NCBI GenBank assembly: GCA_918797485.1
Contig: CAKKNE010000002.1
Span: 5,704,001-5,768,000, forward strand
Length of the DNA stretch: 64,000 bases
Source of the DNA: Pelagomonas calceolata
Lineage: Eukaryota
Direction of reading: 5' to 3'
Part shown: in pieces, positions 4,036-35,086 of the stretch
Numbering within the stretch: the stretch's first letter is position 1
How the letters are laid out: the number at the start of each line of letters is the position of its first letter
The notes under the pieces: generated by a model
Database searches by the model: none
Told to the model about the DNA's origin: nothing
What the model saw: the letters and a program-made list of their open reading frames with translations, nothing else
Translations under genes and position numbers: made by a program

Positions 4036-4776
4036 CTATACTACAACCACCATCCAGCTCAGCCACGAGTAGAAGAGGAAGACCGGGTACACCGCGAGCG
4101 CCCGTCTTTTGGAAGGGATGACCTCCTCGACGAACAGCACGGACGCGCGCGTCGCCCAGACCAGCGCCACCGCCGCCGTTACGAAACGCACGAGCCGCGA
4201 CACGCCGACCATGGTCTCGACGACGCCTATGGTTAAGCGAGCGGCACAGACGGGAAACGCGCTGTAGCCTAATACACACACGGATTGTGGTAAGGACAGC
4301 TTCCCTCCCAACAGCTGGGCGTTCACGCTGACTACTATAGCGCCGACCCAGAGCACTACGAAGACCAAAGAAAAGACGACCGCAGCATTCGCATAACTCG
4401 ACCCCGTCGCGAGCGACGTCGCGAGCGTCAGCGAGACTACCAAAGGCCCCCACAAATCCCAGTCCCTCAGATGCTCGATGGTCTCGGACCCCGACGTGTA
4501 GGGCATGAGCACGAGCAGGAGCTTGCCGCCCACATGGCTCGCGTCCCTCCAGAGCGTCTCGCCGACGGTTTCATCTAATGTGCCACTCGTAAAAGCTACG
4601 GGCGGCACGCCGTCGGACCGCGGCAGCTCGCTGCCGAAGCCGCCGCTCATGGACTGTTTTGGCCTCGTTTGTGTAGGGGGGTCGTCGAACGCGTTGTCGT
4701 CATTACTAAAGAAGGCTTCCGCCGCTTCGAGCTCGCCGACGGCGGACTTGATGGAGGGGTCCTCGAAGGCGCTCAT
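4036..4776 (-). CDS. YIPF6: Yip1-family Golgi membrane protein (YIPF6-like)
   Basis: TLDETVGETLWRD, LRDWDLWGPL, NAQLLGGKLS..QSVCVLGYS, RRALAVYPVFLFY; five hydrophobic segments. Confidence 0.85.
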   Translation of the reverse strand: MSAFEDPSIKSAVGELEAAEAFFSNDDNAFDDPPTQTRPKQSMSGGFGSELPRSDGVPPVAFTSGTLDETVGETLWRDASHVGGKLLLVLMPYTSGSETIEHLRDWDLWGPLVVSLTLATSLATGSSYANAAVVFSLVFVVLWVGAIVVSVNAQLLGGKLSLPQSVCVLGYSAFPVCAARLTIGVVETMVGVSRLVRFVTAAVALVWATRASVLFVEEVIPSKRRALAVYPVFLFYSWLSWMVVVV

Positions 4777-5069
4777 CGTTTCGTCGCGAGCGCTGCGGAT
4801 TTTTTTGTGCTTTTTTTTTGCCTGCTGGGCTCTCCTTGGTGAGATGTCCTATGCTGCAGGAGTTTGTGCTACGCTGGCGCAGCTCTCGCTGGGATGCTGC
4901 CTGTCACAGCGTGTGCCTGTGTCGTCCTCGCAATGCCTGCCTTGGGCCTCGAGCAGCCGACGCCTCTCGATGGAGGCTCGGTGGGGGTCACCAGTCCTTG
5001 CGATTCTTGCTCGCGTGCGCACGGGATACGTCGCTAGATGCGAAGACCCAGCGGAGTCCTCTCGCGCGG

Positions 5070-5092
5070 GCTAGCGTACATAATCACACTAG
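5070..5092 (-). promoter_or_regulatory. Recurrent intergenic CTAG...CTAG motif (diverged copy)
   Basis: Reverse complement reads CTAGTGTGATTATGTACGCTAGC; lies between the divergent YIPF6-like and trigger factor genes. Confidence 0.4.
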
Positions 5093-5245
5093 TAAGTCGA
5101 CGCACTGCAACCCCTTGAGCGCTGCTTGAGCGACGTGCCTCGACGTTTGCTACGCGTCGGAGGCCGTTGAAGAGTCCAGTGAGTGAGTGCACTGCCGCGT
5201 GACGCCGGCTCGCCAAGCGCACTCGTAGCGCAAACAAGCAGAGCG

Positions 5246-6790
5246 ATGGCACGCCGGGTTGTGCTGCTCGCGGCCGGCGCCGTGGCGTTCTCGCCAAGCG
5301 CGCCGCTGGCGCAACCCAGATTAAGGCTAAGCGCCACGGCGACCGACGTCGAGACGGACAAGGAGGAGTCCTGCGTCTCCTTCACCGTGCCGGTCCCGGC
5401 CTCGCTCACGAAGGCCGCGTACAAAACAGCCGCCGGCGAGATGGCGCAAACCAGAAAAATTCCGGGCTGGCGCCAGAAGGACTGGAAGAAGGTGCCCATT
5501 GGGGTGGTTGCTGGCGCGGTCGGTGCCCAGACTCTGAAGAGCTTGGCCATCGAGAAGCTCACGGAGACGGAAGTACATAGCGCGATCACGGGACTCGGTG
5601 TCGAAGTCGTCGGCCAGGCCCAGCTCGTCGGCGACGTCGAGGAGATCATGCAGACGTTCACGCCGGGCGAGCCGTGGGACATGCGCGTGAAGATCGACAT
5701 TTGGCCGGAGGCCGTCTGGTCGCAGCCCTGGGACGACGGGACGTTGGCCGTTGAAGTGGAAAGAGAAGCCAAGGACCAGTCGACGCGAGACAAGGCCCTG
5801 GAGGCCCTTCGAGAGAGGTATTGTGATATTGAGGACGCGCCTGCCGACCACGTCGCGCGGGAAGGTGATGTTGCGATGGTCGACATCGATGGGTATTTGA
5901 GAGATGAAAACGGGAACCGAGCGGGCGAGTTACCGATCCAGGGCGCCGTCGGCGGGGACGACCTGGAGTTGATCCTCGAGCCGGGCAAGTTCTTACCTGG
6001 CGTGGTGGAAGCTTTGATCGGCAAGAAGGCCGGCGAAAAAGTCACGGTGCCCGTGGACTTCCCGGAATCGCGACAGTATCGCGAGGAGCAGCCGTTGGCC
6101 GGCGTCAAGGCTGGCTTCGACGTCACGATTAATGCCGTACGGTTACGGTCCTTGCCGGAACTCAATGACGCGTTCGCGGGGAAGATCCGACCTGGGTTGA
6201 CATTGGATGAACTCAAACAGGAGGTCGAGAACACGGTCGGCGGCCAGGAGGAGGACAAGACCACGGATACGGTTCATAAGGAGCTCGAGAAGGCTTTAGC
6301 TGAAAGGTTGACGTCTCAACTACCGGAAGCTCTCGTAGTAGAGTCGGCCAAGCAGCGCTTCGCCGTCATGCTCGCGGAGATGCGCAACAGTGGGACGGAC
6401 GACGCGGCCCTGAAGCAGATGATCTCGCCCGAGGGCTTCCAGAAGTACCTGAAGGTCGTGCGGCCCAAGGTCGTTACTGAGTTACGAGGAAAATTAGCCG
6501 TCGAGTCCATCGGCCGCTCCATCGGTGTCCAAGCCGACGAGCAGCAGGTCGAGGAGCAGATGGAGCTCGTGAAGCGCCAGTACGAGCAGCAGGAGGCCGA
6601 TAGTGGGGCCGCGTTCAACGAGGAGAAGGCGCGCGAGAAGGTCACCTACGAACTACAGCGAGTGGCCGTGCTCGACAAGGTCCGAGATCAGGCGAAGATC
6701 ACCTACGTCGACGCGTTGTCGCCGGAGGAGACGGCGCGGAAGATGGGCATCGACGTCGACAACCTGCCGCCCGAGGTGCAGCTCGGCTAG
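5246..6790 (+). CDS. tig: Plastid-targeted trigger factor (ribosome-associated chaperone/PPIase)
   Basis: Signal peptide ending AVA-FSP (ASAFAP-like bipartite signal); IPGWR ribosome-binding loop variant; FKBP-like domain (GDVAMVDIDG, FLPGVVEALIGKKAGE, V.FP); LPELNDAFA. Confidence 0.85.
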   Translation: MARRVVLLAAGAVAFSPSAPLAQPRLRLSATATDVETDKEESCVSFTVPVPASLTKAAYKTAAGEMAQTRKIPGWRQKDWKKVPIGVVAGAVGAQTLKSLAIEKLTETEVHSAITGLGVEVVGQAQLVGDVEEIMQTFTPGEPWDMRVKIDIWPEAVWSQPWDDGTLAVEVEREAKDQSTRDKALEALRERYCDIEDAPADHVAREGDVAMVDIDGYLRDENGNRAGELPIQGAVGGDDLELILEPGKFLPGVVEALIGKKAGEKVTVPVDFPESRQYREEQPLAGVKAGFDVTINAVRLRSLPELNDAFAGKIRPGLTLDELKQEVENTVGGQEEDKTTDTVHKELEKALAERLTSQLPEALVVESAKQRFAVMLAEMRNSGTDDAALKQMISPEGFQKYLKVVRPKVVTELRGKLAVESIGRSIGVQADEQQVEEQMELVKRQYEQQEADSGAAFNEEKAREKVTYELQRVAVLDKVRDQAKITYVDALSPEETARKMGIDVDNLPPEVQLG

Positions 6791-14710: not shown

Positions 14711-15088
14711 CTAGCTCTCCTCGATGTCCCAGACCACCGCTCTTTCAGCTAACCCCGCTCTTTCTAACTCCAGCACGTCCCGGATGTCCATGCGCGCGGG
14801 ATGCTGCGGCGACGCCTCTCTGGCATCATCGACCTCGCCCAACAACACGATGGAGTCGCCCCGCACGACATACAGGCCCAGCGGCGCGTCGCCGTAGACG
14901 GCGTTCACGCCCTCCTTCGCCGGGATGACGACGCGCCGCTCGACCGCGTCCTCTAGAACAACATTCGAGAACTGGTCGAAGGACCGCATGACGCCCACGA
15001 GGTTGCGGCCGTCCCGCAGAATCACGAGGACGCGCTTGTCCAACTGGTCCACGAGCGACGCCGCCGCGGGCAGCACCAGGCCCGCCAT
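14711..15088 (-). CDS. LSM1: U6 snRNA-associated Sm-like protein LSm1
   Basis: ASLVDQLDKRVLVILRDGRNLVGVMRSFDQFSNVVLEDAVERR...GLYVVRGDSIVLLGEVD (Sm1 and Sm2 motifs). Confidence 0.92.
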   Translation of the reverse strand: MAGLVLPAAASLVDQLDKRVLVILRDGRNLVGVMRSFDQFSNVVLEDAVERRVVIPAKEGVNAVYGDAPLGLYVVRGDSIVLLGEVDDAREASPQHPARMDIRDVLELERAGLAERAVVWDIEES

Positions 15089-15471
15089 GCGCTCGCACCG
15101 CTGCTTCCGTGCACGGCTCGCGGTGCTGCGAGGCCAGCCGGCACAGCGGTATCTCTCAACACGATCCGACGCTGCGGAGCGCACGCAGGTGCGCCAAAAA
15201 ACGCGCCGCCGCCGCGCGAGGCAGCCAAAAAACCCGTTTAGTAGCTTTGCTTTTTTGGCGTGTTTTTGCTCCTATCCCTCGCGGGGGCGCCTCGGCCGCG
15301 CTCCAACCGCTCCCGAGCCCTCAAAACCAAATGCAACCAAATCGATTCCGTCCAAAACGCGCTGTCGGCACAGCGGTCCCAACACCGGTGCTCGTCATCG
15401 GCGGACTCCGAATCACGGTGCAAACCCTGAAATGCTGCCCCCGGGCAGGGATTCGACATGAGCGGCTGCCG

Positions 15472-18400
15472 ATGCTATTAATAAACCTGCTCGCGTGCTG
15501 CGCTGCGCGCGGCGCCGCGGCCGCCGCGGCCGGCGGCGCGCGCGAGCCGCCGATCGGGCGGCGCCTAGACGTTCCGGGCGTGCCGACTCCCTTGCCGACG
15601 ACGAACGCGACCGTAGCCGCAAATGCGACCAATTCTGTAAACGCGACGCCGACGGCCGCGCCGTCCCCTGCACCGACGCCGAACGCGACCGTAGCCGCAA
15701 ATGCGACCAATTCTGTAAACGCGACGCCGACGGCCGCGCCGTCCCCTGCACCGACGCCGAACGCGACCGTAGCCGCAAATGCGACCAATTCTGTAAACGC
15801 GACGCCGACGGCCGCGCCGTCCCCTGCACCGACGCCGAACGCGACCGTAGCCGCAAATGCGACCAATTCTGTAACGCGACGCCGACGGCCGCGCCGCGCC
15901 CCTGCACCGACGCCGAACGCGACCGTAGCCGCAAATGCGACCAATTCTGTAAACGCGACGCCCGACGGCCGCGCCGTCCCTGCACCGACGCCGAACGCGA
16001 CCGTAGCCGCAAATGCGACCAATTCTGTAACGCGACGCCGACGGCCGCGCCGTCCCTGCACCGACGCCGAACGCGACCGTAGCCGCAAATGCGACCAATT
16101 CTGTAAACGCGACGCCGACGGCCGCGCCGTCCCCTGCACCGACGCCGAACGCGACCGTAGCCGCAAATGCGACCAATTCTGTAAACGCGACGCCGACGGC
16201 CGCGCCGTCCCCTGCACCGACGCCGAACGCGACCGTAGCCGCAAATGCGACCAATTCTGTAAACGCGACGCCGACGGCCGCGCCGTCCCCTGCACCGACG
16301 CCGAACGCGACCGTAGCCGCAAATGCGACCAATTCTGTAAACGCGACGCCGACGGCCGCGCCGTCCCCTGCACCGACGCCGAACGCGACCGTAGCGCAAA
16401 TGCGACCAATTCTGTAACGCGACGCCGACGGCGCGCCGTCCCTGCACCGACGCCGAACGCGACCGTAGCCGCAAATGCGACCAATTCTGTAAACGCGACG
16501 CCGACGGCCGCGCCGTCCCCTGCACCGACGCCGAACGCGACCGTAGCCGCAAATGCGACCAATTCTGTAAACGCGACGCCGACGGCCGCGCCGTCCCCTG
16601 CACCGACGCCGAACGCGACCGTAGCCGCAAATGCGACCAATTCTGTAAACGCGACGCCGACGGCCGCGCCGTCTGCTGTACCGACGCCGGTGCCGACCCC
16701 TCCGCCCTCGCTCTCGCCGACGCTCACGTCGGCGCCGACGGCGCACGAGTACGAGGACAACCTCGTGGCCTACTACCCGATGACGCACGGCAAGCTGGAC
16801 GACGCCCACACGAAATTCCACGGCAAGGCATGGAGGCCCGAGCAACCTGACGTTCCCGATTCCATGATGGTTGCCGCGGATCTGCGGCAGACCGACGCGC
16901 GCGACGGTCCCCAGGGCGACGCGGTGGCGCTCAACAAGAGCTTTTACGAGTACATCGAGCTGCCCGACAACGTGACGAGGTCCATCTCCGGGGACCGGCC
17001 GAGGACGGTCTGTCTCTGGGCGCGGATCGACAAGTGGAAGAACGCCCGGATCTTCGAGTACGGCAGAAAGGCGCCCCAGGGAGAGCTGTTCGGCCTGCGC
17101 ACCTGGAACGTCCCGGGCGAGTTTGCGGTCGAAGCGCCATGGAACGTTCGGAACCATTGGGACAATCGAAACGTCAACCTGAGCACGAACGTCAGCATAA
17201 CGCAGGCGCCGACGCCATCGCCGACGACGCCTCAGCCGACGCTGGAACCAGGCATGAGCCGCCGACTTGACGCCACCGGCGAGACTACGGCGGCCCCCAC
17301 GCCGCAGAGCCCGTGGGTGGAAACGTGGCACCACTACTGCGTGACGTACGCCGCGGAGCCGCACCCGAAGGAGAAGGATCGGTACCTCCCAGGGAACGTG
17401 ACCCTCTACGTGGACGGCCGCAAGGAGGGGTTCTGGAAGAACGCGACCGTCAACACGAGCCTCGGCTCGCCGCTCTACATCGGCGCGGACATCCACGGCT
17501 CCAAAACGCTCGATGGGGCCGTGGACGAGGTGTACGTCTACGACAAGGCTCTGGAGGCCTGGCAGGTCGAGGTGCTCCACGGCATCCTCAGTCCGCCGCC
17601 GACGGCCGCGCCGTCTGCTGTACCGACGCCGGTGCCGACCCCTCCGCCCTCGCTCTCGCCGACGCTCACGTCGGCGCCGACGACGCACGAGTACGAGGAC
17701 AACCTCGTGGCCTACTACCCGATGACGCACGGCAAGCTGGACGACGCCCACACGAAATTCCACGGCAAGGCATGGAGGCCCGAGCAACCTGACGTTCCCG
17801 ATTCCATGATGGTTGCCGCGGATCTGCGGCAGACCGACGCGCGCGACGGTCCCCAGGGCGACGCGGTGGCGCTCAACAAGAGCTTTTACGAGTACATCGA
17901 GCTGCCCGACAACGTGACGAGGTCCATCTCCGGGGACCGGCCGAGGACGGTCTGTCTCTGGGCGCGGATCGACAAGTGGAAGAACGCCCGGATCTTCGAG
18001 TACGGCAGAAAGGCGCCCCAGGGAGAGCTGTTCGGCCTGCGCACCTGGAACGTCCCGGGCGAGTTTGCGGTCGAAGTGCCATGGAACGTTCGGAACCATT
18101 GGGACAATCGAAACGTCAACCTGAGCACGAACGTCAGCATAACGCAGGCGCCCGACGCCATCGCCGACGACGCTCAGCCGACGCTGGAACCAGGCATGAG
18201 CCGCCGACTTGACGCCACCGGCGAGACTACGGCGGCCCCCACGCCGCAGAGCCCGTGGGTGGAAACGTGGCACCACTACTGCGTGACGTACGCCGCGGAG
18301 CCGCACCCGAAGGAGAAGGATCGGTACCTCCCAGGGAACGTGACCCTCTACGTGGACGGCCGCAAGGAGGGGTTCTGGAAGAACGCGACCGTCAACACGA

Positions 18401-21400
18401 GCCTCGGCTCGCCGCTCTACATCGGCGCGGACATCCACGGCTCCAAAACGCTCGATGGGGCCGTGGGACGAGGTGTACGTCACGACAAGGCTCTGGAGCC
18501 TGGCAGGTCGAGGTGCTCCACGGCATCCTCAGTCCGCCGCCGACGGCGCGCCGTCTGCTGTACCGACGCCGGTGCCGACCCCTCCGCCCTCGCTCGCCGA
18601 CGCTCACGTCGGCGCCGACGACGACGCCAGTACGAGGACAACCTCGTGGCCTACTACCCGATGACGCACGGCAAGCTGGACGACGCCCACACGAAATTCC
18701 ACGGCAAGGCATGGAGGCCCGAGCAACCTGACGTTCCCGATTCCATGATGGTTGCCGCGGATCTGCGGCAGACCGACGCGCGCGACGGTCCCGAGGGCGC
18801 CGCGGTGGCGCTCAACAAGAGCTTTTACGAGTACATCGAGCTGCCCGACAACGTGACGAGGTCCATCTCCGGGGACCGGCCGAGGACGGTCTGTCTCTGG
18901 GCGCGGATCGACAAGTGGAAGAACGCCCGGATCTTCGAGTACGGCAGAAAGGCGCCCCAGGGAGAGCTGTTCGGCCTGCGCACCTGGAACGTCCCGGGCG
19001 AGTTTGCGGTCGAAGTGCCATGGAACGTTCGGAACCATTGGGACAATCGAAACGTCAACCTGAGCACGAACGTCAGCATAACGCAGGCGCCGACGCCATC
19101 GCCCCGCGCCTCAGCCGACGCTGGAACCAGGCATGAGCCGCCGACTTGACGCCACCGGCGAGACTACGGCGGCCCCCACGCCGCAGAGCCCGTGGGTGGA
19201 AACGTGGCACCACTACTGCGTGGACGACGCCGCGGAGCCGCACCCGAAGGGAGGAAGGATCGGTACCTCCCAGGGAACGTGACCCTACGTGGACGGCCGC
19301 AAGGAGGGGTTCTGGAAGAACGCGACCGTCAACACGAGCCTCGGCTCGCCGCTCTACATCGGCGCGGACATCCCGCCCAAAACGCTCGATGGGGCCGTGG
19401 ACGAGGTGTACGCGTCTACGACAAGGCTCTGGCGCCTGGCAGGTCGAGGTGCTCCACGGCATCCTCAGTCCGCCGCCGACGGCCGCGCCGTCTGCTGTAC
19501 CGACGCCGGTGCCGACCCCTCCGCCCTCGCTCTCGCCGACGCTCACGCCGGCGCCGACGACGCCGCCAGTACGAGGACAACCTCGTGGCCTACTACCCGA
19601 TGACGCACGGCAAGCTGGACGACGCCCACACGAAATTCCACGGCAAGGCATGGAGGCCCGAGCAACCTGGCGTTCCCGATTCCATGATGGTTGCCGCGGA
19701 TCTGCGGCAGACCGACGCGCGCGACGGTCCCCAGGGCGACGCGGTGGCGCTCAACAAGAGCTTTTACGAGTACATCGAGCTGCCCGACAACGTGACGAGG
19801 TCCATCTCCGGGGACCGGCCGAGGACGGTCTGTCTCTGGGCGCGGATCGACAAGTGGAAGAACGCCCGGATCTTCGAGTACGGCAGAAAGGCGCCCCAGG
19901 GAGAGCTGTTCGGCCTGCGCACCTGGAACGTCCCGGGCGAGTTTGCGGTCGAAGCGCCATGGAACGTTCGGAACCATTGGGACAATCGAAACGTCAACCT
20001 GAGCACGAACGTCAGCATAACGCAGGCGCCGACGCCATCGCCGACGACGCCTCAGCCGACGCTGGAACCAGGCATGAGCCGCCGACTTGACGCCACCGGC
20101 GAGACTACGGCGGCCCCCACGCCGCAGAGCCCGTGGGTGGAAACGTGGCACCACTACTGCGTGACGTACGCCGCGGAGCCGCACCCGAAGGAGAAGGATC
20201 GGTACCTCCCAGGGAACGTGACCCCCACGTGGACGGCCGCAAGGAGGGGTTCTGGAAGAACGCGACCGTCAACACGAGCCTCGGCTCGCCGCTCTACATC
20301 GGCGCGGACATCCCGCCCAAAACGCTCGATGGGGCCGTGGGACGAGGTGTACGTCTACGACAAGGCTCTGGAGGCCTGGCAGGTCGAGGTGCTCCACGGC
20401 ATCCTCAGTCCGCCGCCGACGGCCGCGCCGTCTGCTGTACCGACGCCGGTGCCGACCCCTCCGCCCTCGCGCTCGCCGACGCTCACGCCGGGCGCCGACG
20501 ACGCACGAGTACGAGGACAACCTCGTGGCCTACTACCCGATGACGCACGGCAAGCTGGACGACGCCCACACGAAATTCCACGGCAAGGCATGGAGGCCCG
20601 AGCAACCTGACGTTCCCGATTCCATGATGGTTGCCGCGGATCTGCGGCAGACCCGCGCGCGACGGTCCCGAGGGCGCCGCGGTGGCGCTCAACAAGAGCT
20701 TTACAGTACATCGAGCTGCCCGACAACGTGACGAGGTCCATCTCCGGGGACCGGCCGAGGACGGTCTGTCTCTGGGCGCGGATCGACAAGTGGAAGAACG
20801 CCCGGATCTTCGAGTACGGCAGAAAGGCGCCCCAGGGAGAGCTGTTCGGCCTGCGCACCTGGAACGTCCCGGGCGAGTTTGCGGTCGAAGTGCCATGGAA
20901 CGTTCGGAACCATTGGGACAATCGAAACGTCAACCTGAGCACGAACGTCAGCATAACGCAGGCGCCGACGCCATCGCCGACGACGCCTCAGCCGACGCTG
21001 GAACCAGGCATGAGCCGCCGACTTGACGCCACCGGCGAGACTACGGCGGCCCCCACGCCGCAGAGCCCGTGGGTGGAAACGTGGCACCACTACTGCGTGA
21101 CGTACGCCGCGGAGCCGCACCCGAAGGAGAAGGATCGGTACCTCCCAGGGAACGTGACCCTCTACGTGGACGGCCGCAAGGAGGGGTTCTGGAAGAACGC
21201 GACCGTCAACACGAGCCTCGGCTCGCCGCTCTACATCGGCGCGGACATCCACGGCTCCAAAACGCTCGATGGGGCCGTGGACGAGGTGTACGTCTACGAC
21301 AAGGCTCTGGAGGCCTGGCAGGTCGAGGTGCTCCACGGCATCCTCAGTCCGCCGCCGACGGCCGCGCCGTCTGCTGTACCGACGCCGGTGCCGACCCCTC

Positions 21401-24400
21401 CGCCCTCGCTCTCGCCGACGCTCACGTCGGCGCCGACGACGCACGAGTACGAGGACAACCTCGTGGCCTACTACCCGATGACGCACGGCAAGCTGGACGA
21501 CGCCCACACGAAATTCCACGGCAAGGCATGGAGGCCCGAGCAACCTGACGTTCCCGATTCCATGATGGTTGCCGCGGATCTGCGGCAGACCGACGCGCGC
21601 GACGGTCCCCAGGGCGACGCGGTGGCGCTCAACAAGAGCTTTTACGAGTACATCGAGCTGCCCGACAACGTGACGAGGTCCATCTCCGGGGACCGGCCGA
21701 GGACGGTCTGTCTCTGGGCGCGGATCGACAAGTGGAAGAACGCCCGGATCTTCGAGTACGGCAGAAAGGCGCCCCAGGGAGAGCTGTTCGGCCTGCGCAC
21801 CTGGAACGTCCCGGGCGAGTTTGCGGTCGAAGTGCCATGGAACGTTCGGAACCATTGGGACAATCGAAACGTCAACCTGAGCACGAACGTCAGCATAACG
21901 CAGGCGCCGACGCCATCGCCGACGACGCCTCAGCCGACGCTGGAACCAGGCATGAGCCGCCGACTTGACGCCACCGGCGAGACTACGGCGGCCCCCACGC
22001 CGCAGAGCCCGTGGGTGGAAACGTGGCACCACCGCGTGCGTGACGCCGCGGAGCCGCACCCGAAGGAGAAGGATCGGTACCTCCCAGGGAACGTGACCCA
22101 CGTGGACGGCCGCAAGGAGGGGTTCTGGAAGAACGCGACCGTCAACACGAGCCTCGGCTCGCCGCTCTACATCGGCGCGGACATCCACGGCTCCAAAACG
22201 CTCGATGGGGCCGTGGACGAGGTGTACGTCTACGACAAGGCTCTGGAGGCCTGGCAGGTCGAGGTGCTCCACGGCATCCTCAGTCCGCCGCCGACGGCCG
22301 CGCCGTCTGCTGTACCGACGCCGGTGCCGACCCCTCCGCCCTCGCTCTCGCCGACGCTCACGTCGGCGCCGACGACGCACGAGTACGAGGACAACCTCGT
22401 GGCCTACTACCCGATGACGCACGGCAAGCTGGACGACGCCCACACGAAATTCCACGGCAAGGCATGGAGGCCCGAGCAACCTGACGTTCCCGATTCCATG
22501 ATGGTTGCCGCGGATCTGCGGCAGACCGACGCGCGCGACGGTCCCGAGGGCGCCGCGGTGGCGCTCAACAAGAGCTTTTACGAGTACATCGAGCTGCCCG
22601 ACAACGTGACGAGGTCCATCTCCGGGGACCGGCCGAGGACGGTCTGTCTCTGGGCGCGGATCGACAAGTGGAAGAACGCCCGGATCTTCGAGTACGGCAG
22701 AAAGGCGCCCCAGGGAGAGCTGTTCGGCCTGCGCACCTGGAACGTCCCGGGCGAGTTTGCGGTCGAAGTGCCATGGAACGTTCGGAACCATTGGGACAAT
22801 CGAAACGTCAACCTGAGCACGAACGTCAGCATAACGCAGGCGCCGACGCCATCGCCGACGACGCCTCAGCCGACGCTGGAACCAGGCATGAGCCGCCGAC
22901 TTGACGCCACCGGCGAGACTACGGCGGCCCCCACGCCGCAGAGCCCGTGGGTGGAAACGTGGCACCACTACTGCGTGACGTACGCCGCGGAGCCGCACCC
23001 GAAGGAGAAGGATCGGTACCTCCCAGGGAACGTGACCCTCTACGTGGACGGCCGCAAGGAGGGGTTCTGGAAGAACGCGACCGTCAACACGAGCCTCGGC
23101 TCGCCGCTCTACATCGGCGCGGACATCCACGGCTCCAAAACGCTCGATGGGGCCGTGGACGAGGTGTGCGTCACGACAAGGCTCTGGGCGCCTGGCAGGT
23201 CGAGGTGCTCCACGGCATCCTCAGTCCGCCGCCGACGGCGCGCCGTCTGCTGTACCGACGCCGGTGCCGACCCCTCCGCCCTCGCTCGCCCGGCTCACGT
23301 CGGCGCCGACGACGCACGAGTACGAGGACAACCTCGTGGCCTACTACCCGATGACGCACGGCAAGCTGGACGACGCCCACACGAAATTCCACGGCAAGGC
23401 ATGGAGGCCCGAGCAACCTGACGTTCCCGATTCCATGATGGTTGCCGCGGATCTGCGGCAGACCGACGCGCGCGACGGTCCCCAGGGCGACGCGGTGGCG
23501 CTCAACAACAGCAAGTACGAGTACATCGAGCTGCCCGACAACGTGACGAGGTCCATCTCCGGGGACCGGCCGAGGACGGTCTGCCTCTGGGCGCGGATCG
23601 ACAAGTGGACGAACAAAGCCCGGATCTTCGAGTACGGCAGAAAGGCGCCCCAGGGACAGCTGTTCGGCCTGCGCACCTGGAACGTCCCGGGCGCGCTTAC
23701 GGTCGAAGTGCCATGGAACGTTCGGAACCATTGGGACAATCGAATCAACGTCGTCCTGAGCAGGAACGTCAGCATGACGCCGGTGCCGACGTCAATTCCG
23801 ACATCTCTGCCGACCGAATCGACGGCACCAGAGCGCCGCCGCCGACTTGACGCCACCGACAGCGACAGCGACAACGCCGCCGCCGGCGCCACGCCGTCGG
23901 ACCCGTGGGTGGAAACGTGGCACCACTACTGCGTGACGTACGCCGCGGAGCCGCACCCGAAGGAGAAGGATCGGTACCTCCCAGGGAACGTGACCCTCTA
24001 CGTGGACGGCCGCAAGGAGGGGTTCTGGAAGAACGCGACCGTCAACACGAGCCTCGGCTCGCCGCTCTACATCGGCGCGGACATCCACGGCTCCGAAACG
24101 CTAGATGGGGCCGTGGACGAGGTGTACGTCTACGACAAGGCTCTGGAGGCCTGGCAGGTCGAGGTGCTCCACGGCATCCTCAGTCCGCCGCCGACGGCCG
24201 CGCCGTCTGCTGTACCGACGCCGGTGCCGACCCCTCTGCCGTCGGCCCCGCCGACGATCTCGCTTCCCCCGACGGCGCACGCCTACGAGTACGGCCTCGT
24301 GGCGTACTACCCGATGGACGAGGGCTCGCTGGCGGACGCCCACGACGGCGCCCACGCCGGCCGGGGCTGCAACGCCGCGGCCTGCGAGCCCGAGCAGACC

Positions 24401-27400
24401 CTGGCCACCACGCTCGCGCGCGACGTCGTCCAGGACGCGGTGGCGCTCGACGCGACCGCGAACCAGTTCATCCGGCTGCCGTACGCCACAACGGTGCCCA
24501 TCTCCGAGGATAACCCGCGGACCGTCTGCCTCTGGGCCCGGATCGACGCGTGGGCGGACAACGCCCGGCTCTTCGAGTACGGTAAGGGTCCGACGCAGCG
24601 CTTCGGCCTGCGCACCTACAAGACCCCGGGGCGCTTCTCGGTCATTTCGCACGATCCGAAGCGGCCGAGCACGAACGTCACGGTCGACCTCAACGCCAGC
24701 CGCCTCGTCGCGCCGCGGCCGACGCCGCGGCCGACGATACGAGGCCGCCGCCTCGACGGCACCGGCGAGACGCCGTTCCCTACGGCGGCCCCCACGCCGA
24801 ACCCCACAGCGACCCCCACAACGCCGCCGAACCCCTGGGTGGCCACGTGGCACCACTACTGCGTGACGTACGCCGCGGACCGCGCGAAGCGCAATCGGGC
24901 GAACGTGACCTTCTACGTGGACGGCGTCGCGGAGAAGACCTGGAACGCGACCGTCAACACGAGCGCGTCGCCGCTCTTCATCGGCGCGGACGTCCTCGGA
25001 ACGCACACGCTCGCCGGCGCCGTCGACGAAGTATATGTATATGAGAAGGCGCTGGACGCCTGGCAGGTCGGCGTGCTCTACGGCATCGTCAGCCCGCCGC
25101 CGACGGCCGTGCCCACCGGCGCCCCGACGAGCGCGCCGACGGGCCTCCCGACGCCGCAGCCGAGCCCGGCCCCGACGTCGCACCCGTCGGCCTCGCCCGC
25201 GCCGTCGCGCTACTTCCTCGAGGCCGCGCTCGTCGCGCACTACGGCATGGACGGCGGCGTCGCCGTCGACGACCACGGCCCCTTCGGCAACGCGACCTAC
25301 GTCGAGGGCCGGACGCGCAAGGACACGGCCCTCGACGGCACGGACGCCCTGAACGTGACGGGCGCGCGGAAGGGCGTGCGCCTGCCCGCCGGCGTCACGC
25401 GCCGCATCCTCGGGGGGCGCGAGCGGGGGGTCTGCCTCTGGGCGCGCGTCGACAAGTGGCGCAAGGCCGCGCTCTTCGGCTACGGGGCGGCCGCCACCGG
25501 AGGAAGCGCCACGGGCGCGCCTGGTAAACCGGAGGCCTTCGGCCTCGCCGTCGACGACGACGTAGGTTTCGTCGCTTTGGACTTCGGCGACGGCTATCCC
25601 GTAAAGGCGGAGGTCCCCGCGCGCGCCGGCCAGTGGCACCACTACTGCCTCGTTTATGATGACGGGAACGCCACGCTCTACTACGATAGCGTCATTCAGA
25701 AGACGACGAAGATCGCGCTCAACACGAGCAACAGCTCGCAGTTCCACCTCGGCGCGGGTTTGGATGGGGCCGACGCTCTGGATGGTTCCATCGACGAGGT
25801 TTATATCTACGAGGAGGCCCTGACCCAGGACGCCATCGATTTAATCTACTCGCGCGTGACGAGCCCGCCTTCCTCGGTGCCGTCGCCGGAGCCGTCCTCG
25901 ATGCCGTCGCGGGCACCAACGTCGCTGCCGACGGGCGTCCCGACGTCAGCGCCTTCACCAATGCCGTCGTCCATGCCGACGACGGCCGTGCCCACGTCTA
26001 AGCCGTCGGCGCCCCCGACGGCCGCGCCGACGCCGGCGACGCCCGAGCCCACGGGCGCGCCCAGCGAGGCGCCGTCGGCCATGCCGACGGTCGAGGGCTT
26101 GGGTGTGGCGGGCACGTTGAGGGCCGTGGCGCTGCCGCAGGCTTGTGACGATGCGGCGTTCTTAGGGGCCGTCGAGGCCGCGCTCGTCGCCGCGACGAAC
26201 GCGTCGCGCGCCGACGTGCGCTGTGTTGGATATGCCTGGACGCGGTCCGATTTATATTGGGGGCGGCGCCTCCAGGGCAGCGAGGGCGAGGGCGGGAAGC
26301 TCCCGGAGACGGCGGTCCCGACGAGCGTGCCCACTTCCAATCCTTCGGCGCTGCCGTCGCCGAAGCCGTCGCGCGGGCCGACGGCCGTGCCCACGTCAAT
26401 ACCTTCACCCGTACCGACGGCGTCGCCGGCGCCCACGAGCCTCGAGGCCTTCGAGCTCGACTACCGCGTCCACGCGAGCTACGCGCGGCACCCCGCCATC
26501 CGGGCGGAGACCTTCGACGACGAGGTCAAGACCATGATCAACGCGGCGATCGAGCGGGGCGTTTTTGTGGACGTGTTTAACAAAGAGAAGGTCACGGCCG
26601 AGGTCCAGACCGTGGAGACCGCGGCCATCTACCGGACGGTGGCGCCGTCGCCGGCGCCGTCGTTAGCTCCAACCACAACAGGCTATAGACTCGCCGGCAT
26701 CCTCTCCGCCGAGGTCGTGGGCGGCGACGAGGGCTTCGTCGAGGCCCCCATCGAGACGCTCGTCAACCTCACGAAGCCTCTGATCGTCAAGCTCAAGACG
26801 CGGCCGAGCGCCGACGTGGCCGTGACGTTGACGGCGGCCGGCACGGGCAGCGCGCTCCGCTTTTATGAGGAGGATTCAAAACGGCCGGGCTTCGCGCTCG
26901 CGTCCGACCCTGGTAGTACGACGTCCACGAAGACCATTCCGTCAAATACGACAACTCTCACGGTCATCGCCGGGGCGCTGCGGGACCGGGTCAACTCGGG
27001 GACGAGCTTCAGCCAGACCGTTGAGATCAGTCTCGATTCGGAAGACCCGAACTATTGTTGCGGGCGGCACACGGCCTCGTTTGAGCTCGAGGTCGGCGAC
27101 GTGGACACGTCGCTTATTAGTACGGGCAAGTTCCTGTCCAAAGTTCCGCCCGTGACGTCCGGGGACGGTGGTGCTACGACCATGAAGCTCGACGAGAACG
27201 CCGCGACGTACCAGTTCACGGTCTCGCTGACCTCGAAGCCCTTCCACCGCGTCGGGCTCGAGGTGCTGGGCGACGTCGACGCGTTTTCGGACATTACGTA
27301 TGGCGACGTCGACGAGCGGGTCTACAATCCGGAGCGGTTAGTTTTTGTGGATCCCGACGACTGGGCCGCGCCGGTGACCTGGAGCTTCCACATTGAAGAC

Positions 27401-30400
27401 GACGACGTCTTGGACGGGAACCGGAACTACAAGGTCCAGTTGAGGGCCGTCAGCAACGACACGAACTACGATGGGGTCACGTCGGCGACGCTGACGTGTG
27501 TTGTGCTGGAGGACGACGTCGCCTTCGCCACCGTGTCCGGCAAGAAGCTCACGGTCGGCGCGGGCGTCGACGGGCCGACGTTCGGCGACGGCTACTCCAT
27601 CACGCTGTCGGCGCCGCCCAAGGCCGACGTCTTCGTCGCGCTTGATATCGACGACGCCAAGGTGAAGGTAAATCCTAGATCACTGGTCTTCACGCCCAGT
27701 AATTGGGACCCCCAGGCCGTCGAGGTGAACGCGTCGCTCTACAAAGGCGAGAACAATACGTATATCATGGATTCGCGCATGGCTTTACTGACGCACACCA
27801 TGACGTCGGAAGATACCTTCTTCGACGGCATCGAGGTGGCGAGCGTCGACGTCGCCGTCGAGTTCTCGGCCGACAGCGTGCCGCCCCCGAAACTCGAGGA
27901 GGTGCGGTTCCTGGACGAGGGCAATGGATTAAATGTCCGCTTCGACTCGGCGACGAACCAGGTGGACGGCGCGTGGGACATCGACTGCGCTAAATTATTC
28001 AAGTACGACGAGTACCAGTTCGGCACGGAGGCGACTTGTAGCTGGTACAACCACACGGTCCTCAAGGTGACGTTCTCGAGCGGCGCGTCGATCGTCCCCT
28101 TCGACTACGTGAACGCGACGAAGGACAACGCGGTCTACCTCGTCGGTGGCGTCCTGAAGACGAACATCGCCGGCGCGACGTTAACGTCCGTCTCGCAGTA
28201 CGCCGAGGCCCAGAAGCCCTGGAACCCCGTCGCGCCGTCGATCAGCATCACGGCCCCGTTATCCGTTGGCGTCTGCGACGGCATCTCCCTGGACGCGCGC
28301 GGCGCGACGGGCGGCGGCAGTCGCGCCCTAACTTATGAATGGGGCGTTTTGACGGACTGGGACGCGGAAACGACCGAGGAGGCCGATTCCGTGATTGCGT
28401 TGCAAGAGAAGCTCGTGACCACCTCCACGGTCATCTCGCTGGGCTTTGGCGACCTATTAGCTGGAAGGGCCTACACGTTTCTCATTGCAGCAAAGAACTA
28501 CCTGGGCGAGACGACGACGGCCTTCGCGACCGTCAATAAACTAGGCTCGCCCTCACCCATGGTCCTCTTCCAGGAGAGTCAGATCGCTATGGTCCGCTCC
28601 GACGCGAAGACCTTGAAATTGGACGTGGCTCTACCGAATTTAACGTGCACGGACATGAACGTGTCCTCGACGGCCCTAGGCTTCGTCTGGCGCGCCTGGC
28701 GGTTGGACGGCGCGTCGTATGTGCGGGATGTTCCCCTCTTGTCAGAGTACACGGCGAACCCCGTAAGTTGCCGCCTGCCGAAGGATGCGTTGAATGCGCA
28801 GACGACCTATTGGTTTGAGGTGACCGTGGGTTTCGCGGACACGATGACCATCAACAACACGGCCGCGACGACCGTAAACGTCGGCGCCCAGGCGTTGGTC
28901 GCGTCCATCGCGGGCGGCGTCGAGCAGGCCGTGGCCATCGGTGACACCGTCGAGTTGGACGGGAGCCTGTCCGTGGACCCCGACGAGAATGACGCCGAGG
29001 GACCGCTCCAGTACCTCTGGAACTGTTCAAGAATAGTCGACGTGACCCTCGAGACGGGCGAGATCCAACGGCGTCTCGTCCACGACAAGTCGCTGCTGGC
29101 GCCCGTCGACGCGACGGCCGCGATCCTCGCGTTCGTGCCGGACACGACGAGCGGCTGGACCGGCGGGGCCACCTACGAGTTTACGCTGCTCGTATCAAGG
29201 GGCACGAGGACGGCCACCTACTCCATCCTCCTCTTCATCAGCGCGGACCGGTACATGCCGCGCGCGACGGTGACTGATTTTGATGAAAATCTGAAGTACA
29301 ACCCCACGGCGGACACGTACGCCGCCGTCTACTTCGAGGCGACGTCGCCCGACCCCGATAGGTACTGCTGCGACTCGGTCTGGGAGGTCGAGGGCGAGAC
29401 CATCAACCTCTTGGCGAAGGACGCGGCCGCGGCGTCGCCCATGCTTATTAATCTAGGCCTGACGCGGGCCAACGCCGTGTACCGCCTGAAGCTGACGGTC
29501 ACGGATGGCATCGGGTCCACGTCTTCCAGTGTCGTCTCGCTGACGACGAACGGCCCGCCGACGTCGGGCACGATGGCCGTCACGCCCTACCGAGGCACGG
29601 CTCTGCAAACGGAGTTCGAGTTTCTGCTGGACGCCTGGTCCGACGACCCCGACGACTACCCGCTGACCTACACCTATGGCTACCGCCAGCGCCTGAGCTG
29701 GGGGTCTTCGAGAAGGCGGCTGCAGCGGGGCGGTGCCAGTCGCGGTAGACGCTCCGCAGAACTGGCACCGCTCACACCTTTGGTGGCGGACCAGTACGCG
29801 AGCGCGTGGTTCTACACGACGCTCCCGAAGGCGGACAACATCAACATCACGTGCGTCGGGCGCGTCTTCGACCGCTACCTGAGTTTCGCGGAGGCCTACG
29901 CGCCGGCTCGCGTCGACGCTCTGGAAATGTCGACGGAGGATTTGTCGGCGTTCGCCGGCGATCTGCTCTCGGCCACGGCGGACACGGGCGACGGGGAAGC
30001 TTCCCTATCTCTCATCTCGAACGTGGCGTCGGTGATTGGTGGGGACGAAGAAACGGATGTGAATGGTACTGTCATCGAGAAGACGCCCGAGCAGTTAGCG
30101 GCGGAGCAGGCCCTGATCGACAACCTGTTTGCCGCGACCATAGCGGCCGCGAGTCAGGTCGGCACGGGGACGTCCGCCGCGGCCACATCTCAAGTTTTGA
30201 GCACGGTGTCGACGCTGAGCGCGAACCCCGAAACCTTATCGGAGGACTCGCAGAGCGGCGCGCTGGGTTTGATGTCTTCCGTCGTCGGTGGAGCGTCGTC
30301 GCAAGGTATCGACCCGGACACGGCCGCGTCCACGGCCTCGACGGTGTCCTCGCTCTTGGACGCGTCGCTGTTCAGCGGCGGCGGCGACGCGGACACGGAG

Positions 30401-33400
30401 CTGGGCGGCCAGATGGCGGGCACCGTCGGCGGTTTAGCGACGGCGATGATCGCCAAGGCGTATGGGGGCCAATCGCAAAGTGTGGTCAGCGACAACCTGG
30501 AATTGACGGCATTCAGGACGGACTGCGGGACGCGCGACTCGGCCTTCGGGCTGTCGACGGGCGGCGGCGTCACGGGCATGCCCGCGTCCGCCATGGACTC
30601 GGCGGGCGGCGGGTCGTGCGACGCGGCCGCGAGGAGACGGGGGCGGACGCGGCGGCGCTTACAAGATGATGATATTGCCGATGTTGATGTGAAAGTCGCA
30701 CAACTCAAGAACGTCTACGCCTCAGAGAGCGACAGCACGAATTCTGATCTAGTGCAGATCGAGATGGGCGCCGGCGGTTCGACCGTGAAGGTCGATGGAC
30801 TCGACGAACCCATCGTCCTCGTCATTGGCTTCGAGGCCTACGACCGCACGCTCGCGCCGGGCTTCGAGCCCGAAAAGGTCATCGACACGTGCTACAACCG
30901 GTCGCAAATCCTCAACGTGAACTGCTCGGTGCCCACGACGTTCAACTGCTCTATACCACAATTCATCGAGACGCAGTTCGGCAACAAGACGTTGTTAGCG
31001 CCAAAAAAGACGGGCGAGCCCTGCCCCGGCTCGCCGAAGGGCGAGCCGGTCGCTGTTACGGTGACCTGCCCCGGCAAGAAGCCCGAGTGCACGTTCTGGG
31101 ACCACAACAGGTCGGCGTGGGGCGGCGACGGCTGTCGGGTCGTGAACTACACGGGCTACAACGTGACCTGCGCCTGTACGCACTTGACGGACTTCGCGGG
31201 GAGTACGGGGCCCGTGGGTTCGACGGCCGGCGCCGTCGTCTCGACGTTACTATCGATGAATTTGGCGGACCTGCTGGAGGCGCTCGTCGTCCTGATCACA
31301 TTACTTGTTTGTTTGGGTTTCTTCGCTTTCTTGTACGCGAACGGCCAGTTCCAGGACGCGCAGGACGAAAAACATAGGAACCAGCTAAGGGATCGCGTCC
31401 TGCCGAAGGATGCGTTGCAAGCCGCGTCGCGGCCCGAAGTCATCTCGAGGGCGACGCAGAAGATCGCCATCGCCGCGGCCTTTAAGGCGAAGGACACGCG
31501 GCCCTGGTTGTTAGCTCCCTCCACTTATAGAGCGTACCAGCGGAAAGTGAGGCCGGTCAAGAACTGGGTCGCGACGGCCTTCCACGGCTTCGTGACGGCG
31601 ATGCGCCGCGAGCACAAGATCCTGCAGATCTTCTACCTGCCGGACGGGACGTTTACGCGGTCGGAGCGAGCCACGGTGTTGTGTGTTTTGGTCTTTTCTA
31701 CTTTGTTGGCCAATGCCTTCATACTGTCGGTCTACTCACATGCTCACATAGAAATACCAATCATAAACTGGAAGGTCCACGCCGCGAGCGAAGACCCGGT
31801 GAACGCCCAGATCGCGGGCGTCATCTTCAGTACCTTTTCCGCCCTCGTCGCGACGGGGACGTATCTATTGTTTGCATTCTTTTTCCAGAAGACGGGGGAA
31901 CCGACGGAAGAAGTGGATCACTTTTTGGGCGTGCCGGACGATAACCTGGACAAGGAGAATCGCGGTAGAGTGGCTCGTAGGCGAGAAGTACTAGCTGCCA
32001 TCGCCGAGTACGAGAACGCGTTAAATGCGCAGAAGCAGGTACCTAGGTTAGATAGAGAGGACCTCGAGAATAGCATTCATTACCACCCCAATGAAGAACT
32101 AGGGACTGCGCACCAGATGACGCAGCGCGAGCGCGTCGAGTTCGGGCAGCGCTGTTTGCGACGGAAGGAGGACGCGAGGAATGCTGTGGCTTTTAGGTAT
32201 CGCGCCGTCGCGAAGGCCCACCTCAAGTTCAACAACTACTCGAAGAAATGCGCGGAACGGCGCAAGGAGAAGGATAAGAAGGCCCTGCAGCACGACCGGT
32301 CGCTCTTGGCTCGGATCCTACCGTCGTGGCTCTATGTCTTCCTGGCGCCGAAGCCGCCGCCGCTCCATGTCTTGACTTTGGACGAGCGAGCTCTGTTCGA
32401 GGCGGAGGAGGAGGAGCTGAAGACCTTACCCTGGGACGCGAAGCTCGCTTTTAAGGCCCACGTGTCGCCGCTACGGCAGGCCATCAAGGTGCGACACAAG
32501 TCCTCGTGGTCCCCCGGGTGGAACAAGGTGTTTTTCGGCATGGCGGCGTTATGGAGTCTCTTCTGCGCCGTGATGGTCTTCGGTTTCTCCGTGCAACTGA
32601 ACAAGTGCGCGACCTGCGAGCGCCAGGACTTCTGGGTCTGCAAGGAGTGGGACGAGTGCGACAACCCGCCCTGCAGTTGTCTGCACACGCGGCCGAACGG
32701 CGCGGTCATTAACGACGGGACGGACCCGCCCAACCTACCGGCCTGGGCCGTGACGGACTGGGCCGCGAAGAAGGATCGGAACATATGCCGGTCGCCGGAG
32801 ACGTTTCTGCCGTGCGACTCCGCGCCGTCCACGTGTTACAACCTAAAGGAGTGCGAGGACCTCGCGAAGAAGGCCACGAAGCTGACCATGTGCGAGAAGG
32901 AGCGTTTGAAATGTTTCAGGATGACGGCTCGGCAGCGGAGCGGCGCCGCCGCGGTCGCCGCGCACGTCAAGCAGCTCCAGACGCTCGCCCCGAGCTGGGC
33001 GCCGGCGGACGTCGCGGACGCCGAGGCGCGCCGCGATGCCCTGAAGGACGAGGACACGGCGTGTCCCACGACGTGCGGCGCGAGCGTCTGCCCGCACACG
33101 CTGGCGCACTACTGCGGCAGTGCGGGCGCGAACGGCGGCAGCGTGGCGTGGCTGACGCAGGCTCTGATGTCCATCATCATCTCGCTGTTCATTTCCAATT
33201 CCATCTCGATCCTGATGAGCAAGGGCGTCCTACCGGCCTTTGCGCGGTTCTACGTTGGTAGAAGGGCCAAGGACCAGAAGGGAGCGCCGCCCGAAAAGAG
33301 GGGCATCATGGGCGTGTCCAACCGCGTGGACGAGACGGCGAAAAGAATCAGAGCCAAGTACGGCGCCAAGCCCGGCAAGGACTTTATGGATCGGCAGGCG

Positions 33401-34069
33401 CAGGACGATATCGAAGAGGAGGAGCTTACCGTAACTGAGTCAGAGAGCGACGACGATTTGGGTCCTAGTCCGGCAGAGCTAAGACTGGCGGCGGCGCGAC
33501 GGCGCGCGGCCATGGAGGCGCGCGTCGCATCAAAGAATGACGAGGACCCGATGCCTTATGTGGTGGAGCCTCCGTCGGCGCAATTCACGGCGCGCGACCC
33601 CTGGTCGAACTTTGAACCTCTCCATCTCAATAACATGAGGGTCGACATGCACGTGCAATGCGAGCATGCGACGCAGTGGCCGCGGCCGGACGCGCAGGAG
33701 ACCATCGCGAAGCCCCAGGTCTGGAAGTGCCCCTGCGGCGCGGCCGTCGGCCTGCCTCTCAGGAGAGACCATCTGAGGTACGACTGCGCGCCCTACCGCG
33801 ACTCGTTCGAGAACGCGACCCGCAAGTGGTTGGCAGCAAGGGACCCGGAGACGGGCGGCGCGGCGGTCCAGCGCGTCTCCATGATTGCGGCCTGCGGCGC
33901 CGGCGAGGCGCTCTGTGCTCTTGCTGTTAATAGGAAAGAGTCCGTGGCGCAGCGCAAGTTGCAAGCGGAGGACTATAGGGACGAGATGGAGCTCGCCGCG
34001 GAGGTGATTGCTGCGGAAGATTTACTGGAGCGGTGGCACGCCGGTGCAGGCGCCCTGTCCCCGAAGTAA
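15472..34069 (+). CDS. Giant (~6,200 aa) polycystin-1/REJ-like GPS receptor with tandem LamG-like domains; apparent frameshifts inside the repeat arrays
   Basis: Signal peptide MLLINLLACCAARG, then 26-aa NAT-rich repeats, 10 LamG-like units (WHHYCVTY, LYVDG, LDGAVDEVYVYDKAL), Calx-beta/Ig-like units (LVFTPSNWD), REJ (SVGVCDGISLDA, NGPPTSG..V.P..G.ALQTEF), GPS (CTFWD..W..DGC..VTCACTHLTDFA) and several TM segments. ORFs 15109, 19192, 20728 and 23147 are joined across small indels confined to the repeats. Confidence 0.75.
15604..16672 (+). repeat. Coding tandem repeat, 14 x 78 bp (PNATVAANATNSVNATPTAAPSPAPT)
   Basis: AATTCTGT recurs 14 times at ~78-bp spacing from 15631 to 16639. Confidence 0.95.
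16747..23317 (+). repeat. Coding tandem repeat, 7 near-identical ~942-bp units (314-aa LamG-like domain plus P/T linker), followed by 3 progressively diverged units to ~25860
   Basis: Unit start (G/C)AGTACGAGGACAACCTCGTGGCC at 16747, 17689, 18628, 19567, 20507, 21445, 22381 and 23318. Confidence 0.95.
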
Positions 34070-34418
34070 CATATGTTTGTTAGAATTACTACCTACCAAA
34101 ACTCCGCCGCTCCAGCGCATCATGCCACCGCTCCCGCAGCGACGCGTTCACGACGCCGCCGACGCTGAATGCGGGGATGATGCGCAGCATCCTTAACGTC
34201 ACGGTCTCGGGGTACGTCTCGCGCAGCGTTGCGCGGGCGCCCTGTCCCCGAAGTAAACATATGTTTGTTAGAATTACTACCTACCAAAACTCCGCCGCTC
34301 CAGCGCATCATGCCACCGCTCCCGCAGCGACGCGTTCACGACGCCGCCGACGGAGAACGCCGGGATGATGCGCAGCATCCTTAACGTCACGGTCTCGGGG
34401 TACGTCTCGCGCAGCGTT
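34049..34418. repeat. Tandem duplication (~187-bp unit) of the junction between two convergent gene ends
   Basis: GGCGCCCTGTCCCCGAAGTAA...GCGCAGCGTT at 34049-34230 and again at 34236-34418. Confidence 0.9.
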
Positions 34419-35086
34419 TGTAAATGCGCCGCGACGCCGCCGCCCGTGTTGTTGTAGACCGCCAGGCCGAGTAGATGCAAGGGCGTGGAAAATAACTGCG
34501 AGACGACCGGCGTGGTCAGGCGCGTCGCGAGCGACGTCTGGGCCGGCGTCAGCGGCAGATTGTAGTCGTCCACGGCCTTGGTGATCGCCGGCGTGACCAA
34601 CGGCGGCAGCGTGAACACGAAGGCCATGGCCAGCACGTCCCTCGAAAAGAATAGACCGTAGGACGGCAGCGGCATTCCCTTGGCCGCGACCACGCCGTAC
34701 ATGCGCGCGAACGCCCGATCCTTGGCGATGCCGGTTGACATGTTGCCGATTGTTGATGCTGCCAATACGGGGAGTGCCGGCTTTATTCCTAGGTATACGG
34801 ATAAAGTGTGGGCAGCATTTGCACCAGCATATGTAGCGCTGTACACCAACATGAGCCACTTCGTCGGCGTACTGCGAATATTGCGTATGGGCTGCTTGAT
34901 CAGTTGGCCGAGGCCCTCGAACATCGCCGGCCAGAGCCGCTGCGCGCCGGCCGCGTTGCGCGTGATGGCCCGGTCCATGGCCGTCACGACGGGGGACACC
35001 GCGACGCTCGCGGCCGCGGCCGCGACGCAGTCGCCCGCGAGGCGCAGGACGACGGAGCCGCCCGGTTTTTGCTGCGGCTCCGGCAT
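34277..35086 (-). CDS. Mitochondrial-carrier-like conserved membrane protein
   Basis: SPVVTAMDRAI, VYSATY..AN, KDRAFARMYG, RDVLAMAFVFTLPP, QLFSTPLHLLGL..YN, LRIIPAFSVGGVVN; Px[D/E]-like helix pattern. Family assignment is approximate. Confidence 0.6.
   Translation of the reverse strand: MPEPQQKPGGSVVLRLAGDCVAAAAASVAVSPVVTAMDRAITRNAAGAQRLWPAMFEGLGQLIKQPIRNIRSTPTKWLMLVYSATYAGANAAHTLSVYLGIKPALPVLAASTIGNMSTGIAKDRAFARMYGVVAAKGMPLPSYGLFFSRDVLAMAFVFTLPPLVTPAITKAVDDYNLPLTPAQTSLATRLTTPVVSQLFSTPLHLLGLAVYNNTGGGVAAHLQTLRETYPETVTLRMLRIIPAFSVGGVVNASLRERWHDALERRSFGR

Follow-up and report, generated by a model that had tools for sequence, protein, structure and literature searches.

A channel-less relative of the front half of polycystin-1, a candidate contact receptor in Pelagomonas calceolata

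We analysed a window of 64,000 nucleotides from Pelagomonas calceolata (NCBI GenBank assembly GCA_918797485.1, contig CAKKNE010000002.1, positions 5,704,001 to 5,768,000 of the forward strand) and describe in it a gene at 15472-34069 whose transcribed product, a giant membrane protein of about 6,200 amino acids (aa), in our judgement probably represents the front half of polycystin-1 (PC1) without PLAT domain or channel and acts as a self-cleaving contact receptor. The parts of the protein, their order, the homology of its membrane domain to transmembrane helices (TM) 1-5 of PC1, its expression and its conservation are observed in the sequence, the predicted fold and the reads. The window is gene-dense eukaryotic DNA of 50-80% GC that also carries housekeeping and plastid-type genes. 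In window coordinates, the features are as follows (P/T, proline/threonine; pLDDT, predicted local distance difference test).

15472..34069, +: entire gene, about 6,200 aa; 23321-34230 shows no intron; start picked from the hydrophobic N-terminus
15472..15567, +: likely signal peptide and short pro-piece with RRL at its end (hydropathy; RRL at 15559)
15595..16689, +: stalk, a 78-bp array of 14.1 copies; 26-aa P/T/N/A unit with many N-glycosylation sequons
16750..23320, +: LamG units 1-7 at 98-99.7% identity, with an RRL-bearing loop in each (Laminin_G_3; 26 indel events)
23321..25855, +: LamG units 8, 9 and 10, diverging, with P/T linkers (Pfam Laminin_G_3)
26090..26644, +: small alpha/beta domain interrupted by an RRL motif (26264) and by a P/T insert; model mostly at pLDDT <50
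26672..27874, +: three Ig-like beta-sandwiches, Calx-beta or MSP/PapD-like (predicted structure)
27845..30016, +: beta domain (conserved), PKD-like units, REJ module (28670-30016 by Pfam)
29930..31204, +: GAIN domain with helical subdomain A, beta subdomain B and GPS; RRL at 30653 in a flexible loop
31181..31189, +: H-L-T autoproteolysis motif, cut site H-L|T; H nearly invariant in a 45-row alignment
31283..33268, +: five-helix membrane domain, homologous to PC1 TM1-5 (hydropathy, profile, fold)
31283-31366, 31658-31735, 31796-31894, 32519-32611 and 33134-33268, +: TM1 to TM5
31952..32293, +: predicted long helical hairpin between TM3 and TM4, cytosolic (model)
32612..33133, +: TM4-TM5 loop, predicted to be extracellular, 16 cysteines (low pLDDT; topology judged by the number of helices)
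33728..33787, +: CxC..HxxxxC zinc finger, lining up with the final finger of relatives' TRAF-type arrays
33800..34042, +: conserved helical C-terminal domain, weakly UBA-like

The link to PC1 lies in the membrane domain. Hydropathy and the AlphaFold2 model (45 rows, pLDDT 78.8) give five helices, an exact count for what a preliminary description of this DNA had called several membrane segments. A profile of the region after the GPS, restricted to the membrane part, had human PC1 as its sole matches below an E-value (E) of 0.05 (E 3.5e-5), and a profile of GAIN plus TM reached PC1 at E 5e-18 across TM2-3 and TM4-5, with the GAIN domains of adhesion G-protein-coupled receptors (GPCRs) matched upstream. 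In structural comparison by VIA-align, model residues 428-1108 fell on PC1 3063-3621 (Z 17.3, root-mean-square deviation (rmsd) 4.6, 219 aligned) and model residues 44-429 on GAIN domains (Z 22.9 with ADGRB2 GAIN, rmsd 5.7, 279 aligned). A single-sequence PDB search with GAIN plus TM returned GPS matches only and no PC1. Profile and fold thus bear out the polycystin-like character that had been proposed for the membrane region; the GPS with its intact H-L|T (Pfam E 3.2e-8) and the Cys-rich loop had likewise been recognized earlier.

The remainder of PC1 is missing. PLAT has no Pfam match, and the gap of about 95 residues between TM1 and TM2 is helical throughout in the model, with no room for that domain. 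TOP and the six-helix channel half are absent, the chain stopping about 270 aa past TM5 with no hydrophobic stretch, which agrees with the initial impression that the protein had neither PLAT nor pore. A class B seven-transmembrane (7TM) bundle is absent as well: there is no 7tm_2 match, and five PC1-type helices occupy its place.

The ectodomain was also largely as first described. The hydrophobic N-terminus at 15472 is likely a signal peptide and is followed by the mucin-like stalk; all ten LamG units match the Pfam Laminin_G_3 profile, and the REJ module has a Pfam E of 1.6e-40. Eight LamG units of 936-969 bp were found, the seven near-identical copies measuring 936-942 bp. Unit 8 has about 92% DNA identity, and units 9 and 10 have 49% and 30% aa identity to unit 1. 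Given the near-identity of the copies, the LamG array and the stalk appear to have expanded recently. Of the proposed "Calx-beta/Ig-like units", three Ig-like sandwiches stand; Calx-beta is one of two candidate folds for them, NCX CBD1 (Z 9.7) scoring level with MSP/PapD folds (Z about 10), and has no Pfam match. The small alpha/beta domain is possibly SEA-like by its sequence pattern. Fold comparison gave no match for this domain, whose model is of low confidence, or for the pre-REJ domains.

A further feature of the ectodomain is the motif RRL, which lies just past the signal peptide, in the same loop of the LamG units, in the alpha/beta domain, in REJ and in the GAIN loop. The ectodomain of the long frame contains 6 such motifs against 0.45 expected from shuffles, and the cytosolic parts, though twice as Arg-rich, contain 0 in 593 residues. 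Relatives retain RRL sites as well. In diatoms, proteins are described as losing RXL/RRL pro-domains to an unknown protease (PMC5525289). By that description of silaffins and Sin1 (PMC5525289), the likeness is an RRL soon after the signal peptide, whereas the Pelagomonas protein also has RRL in LamG, REJ and GAIN loops, where cleavage is putative.

The best reading of the locus is a single + strand gene with assembly errors in its repeat. As assembled, 14992-34069 is spanned by four + strand frames, of which the last, open over 3,677 aa, takes in the whole unique 11 kb from LamG unit 8 to the stop. The 426 aa before unit 1, 7 x 314 aa and the 3,582 aa between the start of unit 8 and the stop sum to about 6,200 aa, the product expected when a single gene was first proposed here. 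We compared the assembly with two runs of polyA RNA from a single sample (about 6% of either run) and with contigs of two DNA runs, over LamG unit 3 and 23321-34230. Stranded RNA covers the + strand in 29 and 30 of 30 bins over 23321-34230; transcript ends cluster near 34060, and coverage is 3'-skewed, with much higher depth past 31329. Introns were rejected as a source of the frame breaks: the RNA has no intron joints over 23321-34230, and the reads restore the frame by 1-3 bases.

Within units 1-7, the 26 indel events of the assembly all fall in units 2-7 and none in unit 1; the assembly slips in the 78-bp array as well. At five listed sites in unit 3, the indels are missing from 20/20, 46/46, 36/36, 36/37 and 35/36 RNA reads, counts that hold for those sites; other listed unit-3 sites have a lower share of indel-free reads (32/40, 41/55), partly since one change aligns two ways. 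If one copy in eight truly had the indel, 46/46 reads would have p of about 0.002, a value that paralogue reads weaken somewhat. In unit 3, the contigs from the two DNA runs, which belong to two studies, are in frame. Because the tested unit-3 frameshifts are missing from nearly all RNA reads and from the DNA contigs, we regard them as assembly errors. Repeat-contig depth was 1,257-1,590 against 154-196 for unique sequence in one DNA run and 3,963-5,885 against 496-612 in the other, a ratio of about 7-8 fold or slightly more in both, although depth does not equal copy number. RNA reads span the junction between stalk array and LamG linker (with loose ends at 19474) and the unit-unit junctions. 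The preliminary description had named separate genes, or real frameshifts in a silent locus, as what would count against it; where examined, the RNA lies on one strand without intron joints and crosses the repeat junctions, and a transcribed locus lacks the unit-3 indels in its reads and contigs, both outcomes favouring that description. Owing to such repeat-borne errors, annotation will split the gene.

In L001, a syntenic orthologue, the frame stays open for 3,631 aa as far as the end of the contig. By region it is 67-84% identical to the window gene, the tail module reaching 91%, and synonymous changes are numerous. At the other end of the gene, an out-of-frame ATG at 15458 lies 14 bases upstream of the proposed start, and a further in-frame ATG lies near 15331. 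A 188-bp tandem duplication (34049-34418) takes in the stop of the gene and the 3' end of a convergent gene; one of the DNA runs contains its junction, and L001 has a single copy at the orthologous locus. That convergent gene (34280-35050, -) has no Pfam match and shows about 80% DNA-level conservation in L001. Over 18631-19569 and 23321-24800, RNA reads carry 7-11 linked differences and loose ends, which point to at least one further expressed LamG-array paralogue in the organism.

The cytosolic tail combines a zinc finger with a helical domain. Of the originally noted "CxH/CxC..HxxxxC cluster", the CxC..HxxxxC part is conserved and the CxH is not shared by relatives. Five relatives match Pfam zf-TRAF, and the last finger of their long arrays aligns with CxC..HxxxxC; by this alignment, and with a weak score of its own, the C-terminal Cys/His motif would be the last finger of what are TRAF-type arrays in relatives. 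Finger and helical domain together are 91% identical to L001, the most conserved region in that comparison, and the module is kept from pelagophytes to Chrysoparadoxa. Phytophthora members have fingers but do not match the tail profile. A loose alignment of the tail reached no better than E 0.39, against the RNF125 zinc finger, and an Atlas search with the tail returned no usable match.

The design extends well beyond Pelagomonas. The closest named relatives are Aureococcus anophagefferens (43-47% over the membrane region) and Pelagophyceae CCMP2097, which fits a pelagophyte host. Giant viruses, other pelagophytes, Chrysoparadoxa and Phytophthora also have GAIN followed by five helices (GAIN+5TM), the named members coming from Aureococcus, Chrysoparadoxa and Phytophthora. 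Homologues were collected by word index (5 and 8 matches) and by HMMER (best 150 of 291 matches). Among the 161 proteins collected, 70 have the TM2 block and 29 have GPS, TM2 and TM5, the blocks being built partly from the same rows. Past TM5, 27 of these 29 have no hydrophobic stretch and 2 have one, where three are strain versions of one gene, five tails are <=34 aa and possibly cut, and a channel-less query ranks channel-less matches first. PLAT and polycystin channel families were found in 0/68 relatives and other matches scanned, some of which matched by GPS only. Searches of open-licence PMC and bioRxiv papers turned up no account of the GAIN+5TM class, TRAF-tailed REJ proteins or giant-virus GAIN. 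This wide channel-less class, the putative TRAF-type identity of the tail and the RRL sites go beyond the preliminary description.

Several relatives vary the parts around this core. RINGv between TM1 and TM2 (the PLAT slot), RhoGAP past TM2 or EF-hands past TM1 occur in P0092, P0110, P0055, P0153 and P0069, and to judge from their domain matches the cytosolic loops take exchangeable modules. An Aureococcus paralogue (P0004 / L004) has FG-GAP repeats and one LamG on the same core. In two contigs (L005:3-6848 and L010:1-9165), the Ig-REJ-GAIN cassette recurs and leads into a P/T stalk, then an RRL-bearing alpha/beta domain, then a single helix; as read from these sequences, the ectodomain is used with different anchors. 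GAIN+5TM proteins are also encoded on giant-virus and virus-like contigs (L030-L042, L009, L012, L017 and L026), and CUB or C-type lectin domains head some of them. In IMG/VR, 13/13 loci found, 9 of them labelled GVMAG, have GPS and then 450-520 aa of the same type, beside helicase, topoisomerase, glycosyltransferase and collagen genes; the viral-type protein L026 has no close match there. In a tree of 32/45 rows, which is midpoint-rooted, lacks a PC1 sequence and has weak deep nodes, the viral-type rows form one clade (support 1.0) apart from the pelagophyte clade, and a viral origin of the window gene was rejected for this reason.

Among known systems, the polycystin-1 family (PC1/PKD1, PKD1L1-3, PKDREJ and the 11-TM SpREJ3-6) shares REJ, GAIN with H-L|T, the stalk, the TM1-5 fold and a lectin-like and Ig-like ectodomain. 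However, the window protein lacks PLAT, TOP and the six-helix channel half and has a LamG array, a Cys-rich TM4-5 loop and a zinc-finger tail; because it is without PLAT and channel half, we do not place it in the PKD1 family. Sea-urchin SpREJ1, 2, 7, 8 and 9 (1, 2 or 6 TM) likewise carry REJ-GPS without the full 11 helices, but by their descriptions none has five PC1-type helices, no PLAT and a zinc-finger tail (PMC1934368). In Ectocarpus, another stramenopile, Esi0130_0068 is described as a male-gamete-specific candidate recognition protein with REJ, GPS and several helices; by the same description it differs in its 1,427 aa, 6-7 predicted helices and no lectin domain (PMC4700764), and it may or may not belong to the GAIN+5TM class. 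Adhesion GPCRs (ADGRL, ADGRB, ADGRG6) have the GAIN fold and GPS in common with the window protein, which differs in having five PC1-type helices, not 7TM, and nothing indicating G-protein coupling.

As a contact receptor, the protein would work as follows. By analogy with GAIN biochemistry, cleavage at H-L|T would leave an ectodomain of 5,200 aa non-covalently on the membrane part, and a secretory-pathway protease may nick the RRL loops as the ectodomain matures. The target of the ten LamG units on their glycosylated stalk would be a surface ligand present in many repeats, most likely a glycan, and copy number would set the avidity. Pull or shedding would then free the stalk peptide to act on the five-helix bundle, after the model for PC1. 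The output might pass through the TRAF-type finger and UBA-like domain of the tail as protein or ubiquitin scaffolding, not ion flux, which is the weakest step. The roles first suggested for the protein, in mating or in encounters with viruses and grazers, are guesses.

Several observations weigh against this reading. Foldseek alone, with the whole model, found GAIN, and PC1 only in 44th place at E 0.6. In the account of PMC9672506, the PC1 stalk is proposed to act on TOP, which the window protein does not have; because TOP is missing, the stalk peptide perhaps acts through the Cys-rich TM4-5 loop. Because a PDB sequence search with LamG unit 1 gave no match, glycan binding is a family expectation only. 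The finger scores weakly against the TRAF-repeat profile (E 0.023, against 4.7e-6 for the relative L003) and has no Pfam match, and the UBA likeness is weak (best such PDB match E 0.61, 1WJ7 presumably being a UBA domain; 1/11 members with UBA_HOIP at E 9e-4). RNA depth drops to 0 and 0.16 at 25141-25504, which weakens the case for a single full-length transcript. The read check covered 7/26 indel events, in mapped stretches lying downstream of 15472-18630; both RNA runs come from one sample, some reads are paralogue-derived, and one DNA run is possibly the source of the assembly. Finally, one more A in the six-A run at 31002, seen in 5/10 RNA reads (3/5 and 2/5 in the two RNA runs) and in neither DNA run, would break the frame just before the GPS; it may be an allele, slippage or a library error. 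Conserved slippage was rejected at this position, where the orthologue sequence differs.

Other readings of the protein retain its parts and change their use. It could be the receptor subunit of a split polycystin, pairing with a separate PKD2-type channel as a PC1/PC2-like calcium sensor, possibly flagellar; we think this unlikely. PC1 joins PC2 through its last six helices and the coiled coil at its C-terminus, and these parts are absent in the window protein. No channel gene appeared in the 30 window open reading frames scanned, apart from an anoctamin 17 kb away, and the five-helix form occurs alone in giant viruses. On the other side, PC1 acts together with PC2 in the account of PMC9672506, and polycystin, cation-channel, ConA-like lectin and dynein domains are described as co-enriched in P. 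calceolata at low light (bioRxiv 10.64898/2026.09.29.755320). We give slightly less weight again to a structural adhesin or cell-coat protein, in which the helices do no more than hold the protein in the membrane and a lectin-rich piece, freed by cuts at GAIN and RRL, serves as decoy or glycocalyx, without signalling. The recent expansion of LamG array and stalk into near-identical copies would suit such a role, as would the Ig-REJ-GAIN cassette on single-helix anchors, but the tail module is the part most conserved against L001 and persists as far as Chrysoparadoxa, and elsewhere in the family the cytosolic loops hold RhoGAP, RINGv or EF-hand domains.

A decaying or mis-assembled locus, with real frameshifts or a repeat count produced by assembly and only the 3' part a gene, seems to us very improbable. 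The number of indel events, the RNA gap and the much higher depth past 31329 are what it would lead one to expect; however, the tested indels are missing from reads and contigs, reads bridge the stalk-LamG and unit-unit junctions, the depth ratio is consistent with 7-8 copies, and the orthologue L001 is intact.

PLAT, TOP, the channel half and the C-tail are where work on PC1 signalling has concentrated. A conserved, expressed natural protein that has GAIN and TM1-5 and lacks all four makes the role of TM1-5 testable and bears on the origin of PKD1; it would suggest that the front half of PC1 is an old receptor in its own right. More tentatively, GAIN with five helices may be an ancient stand-alone receptor class, from which animal PC1 arose by adding PLAT and a TRPP channel, while a stramenopile branch couples the core to TRAF-type fingers and a UBA-like domain, letting a lectin array on a self-cleaving stalk signal via ubiquitin scaffolding, and giant viruses carry a branch of their own. 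If true, this would be a sensing route not described for algae, and a natural minimal system for what PC1 TM1-5 does without a channel. For plankton biology, the gene offers a concrete candidate contact receptor in a pelagophyte, with a putative ligand-binding array that appears recently amplified.

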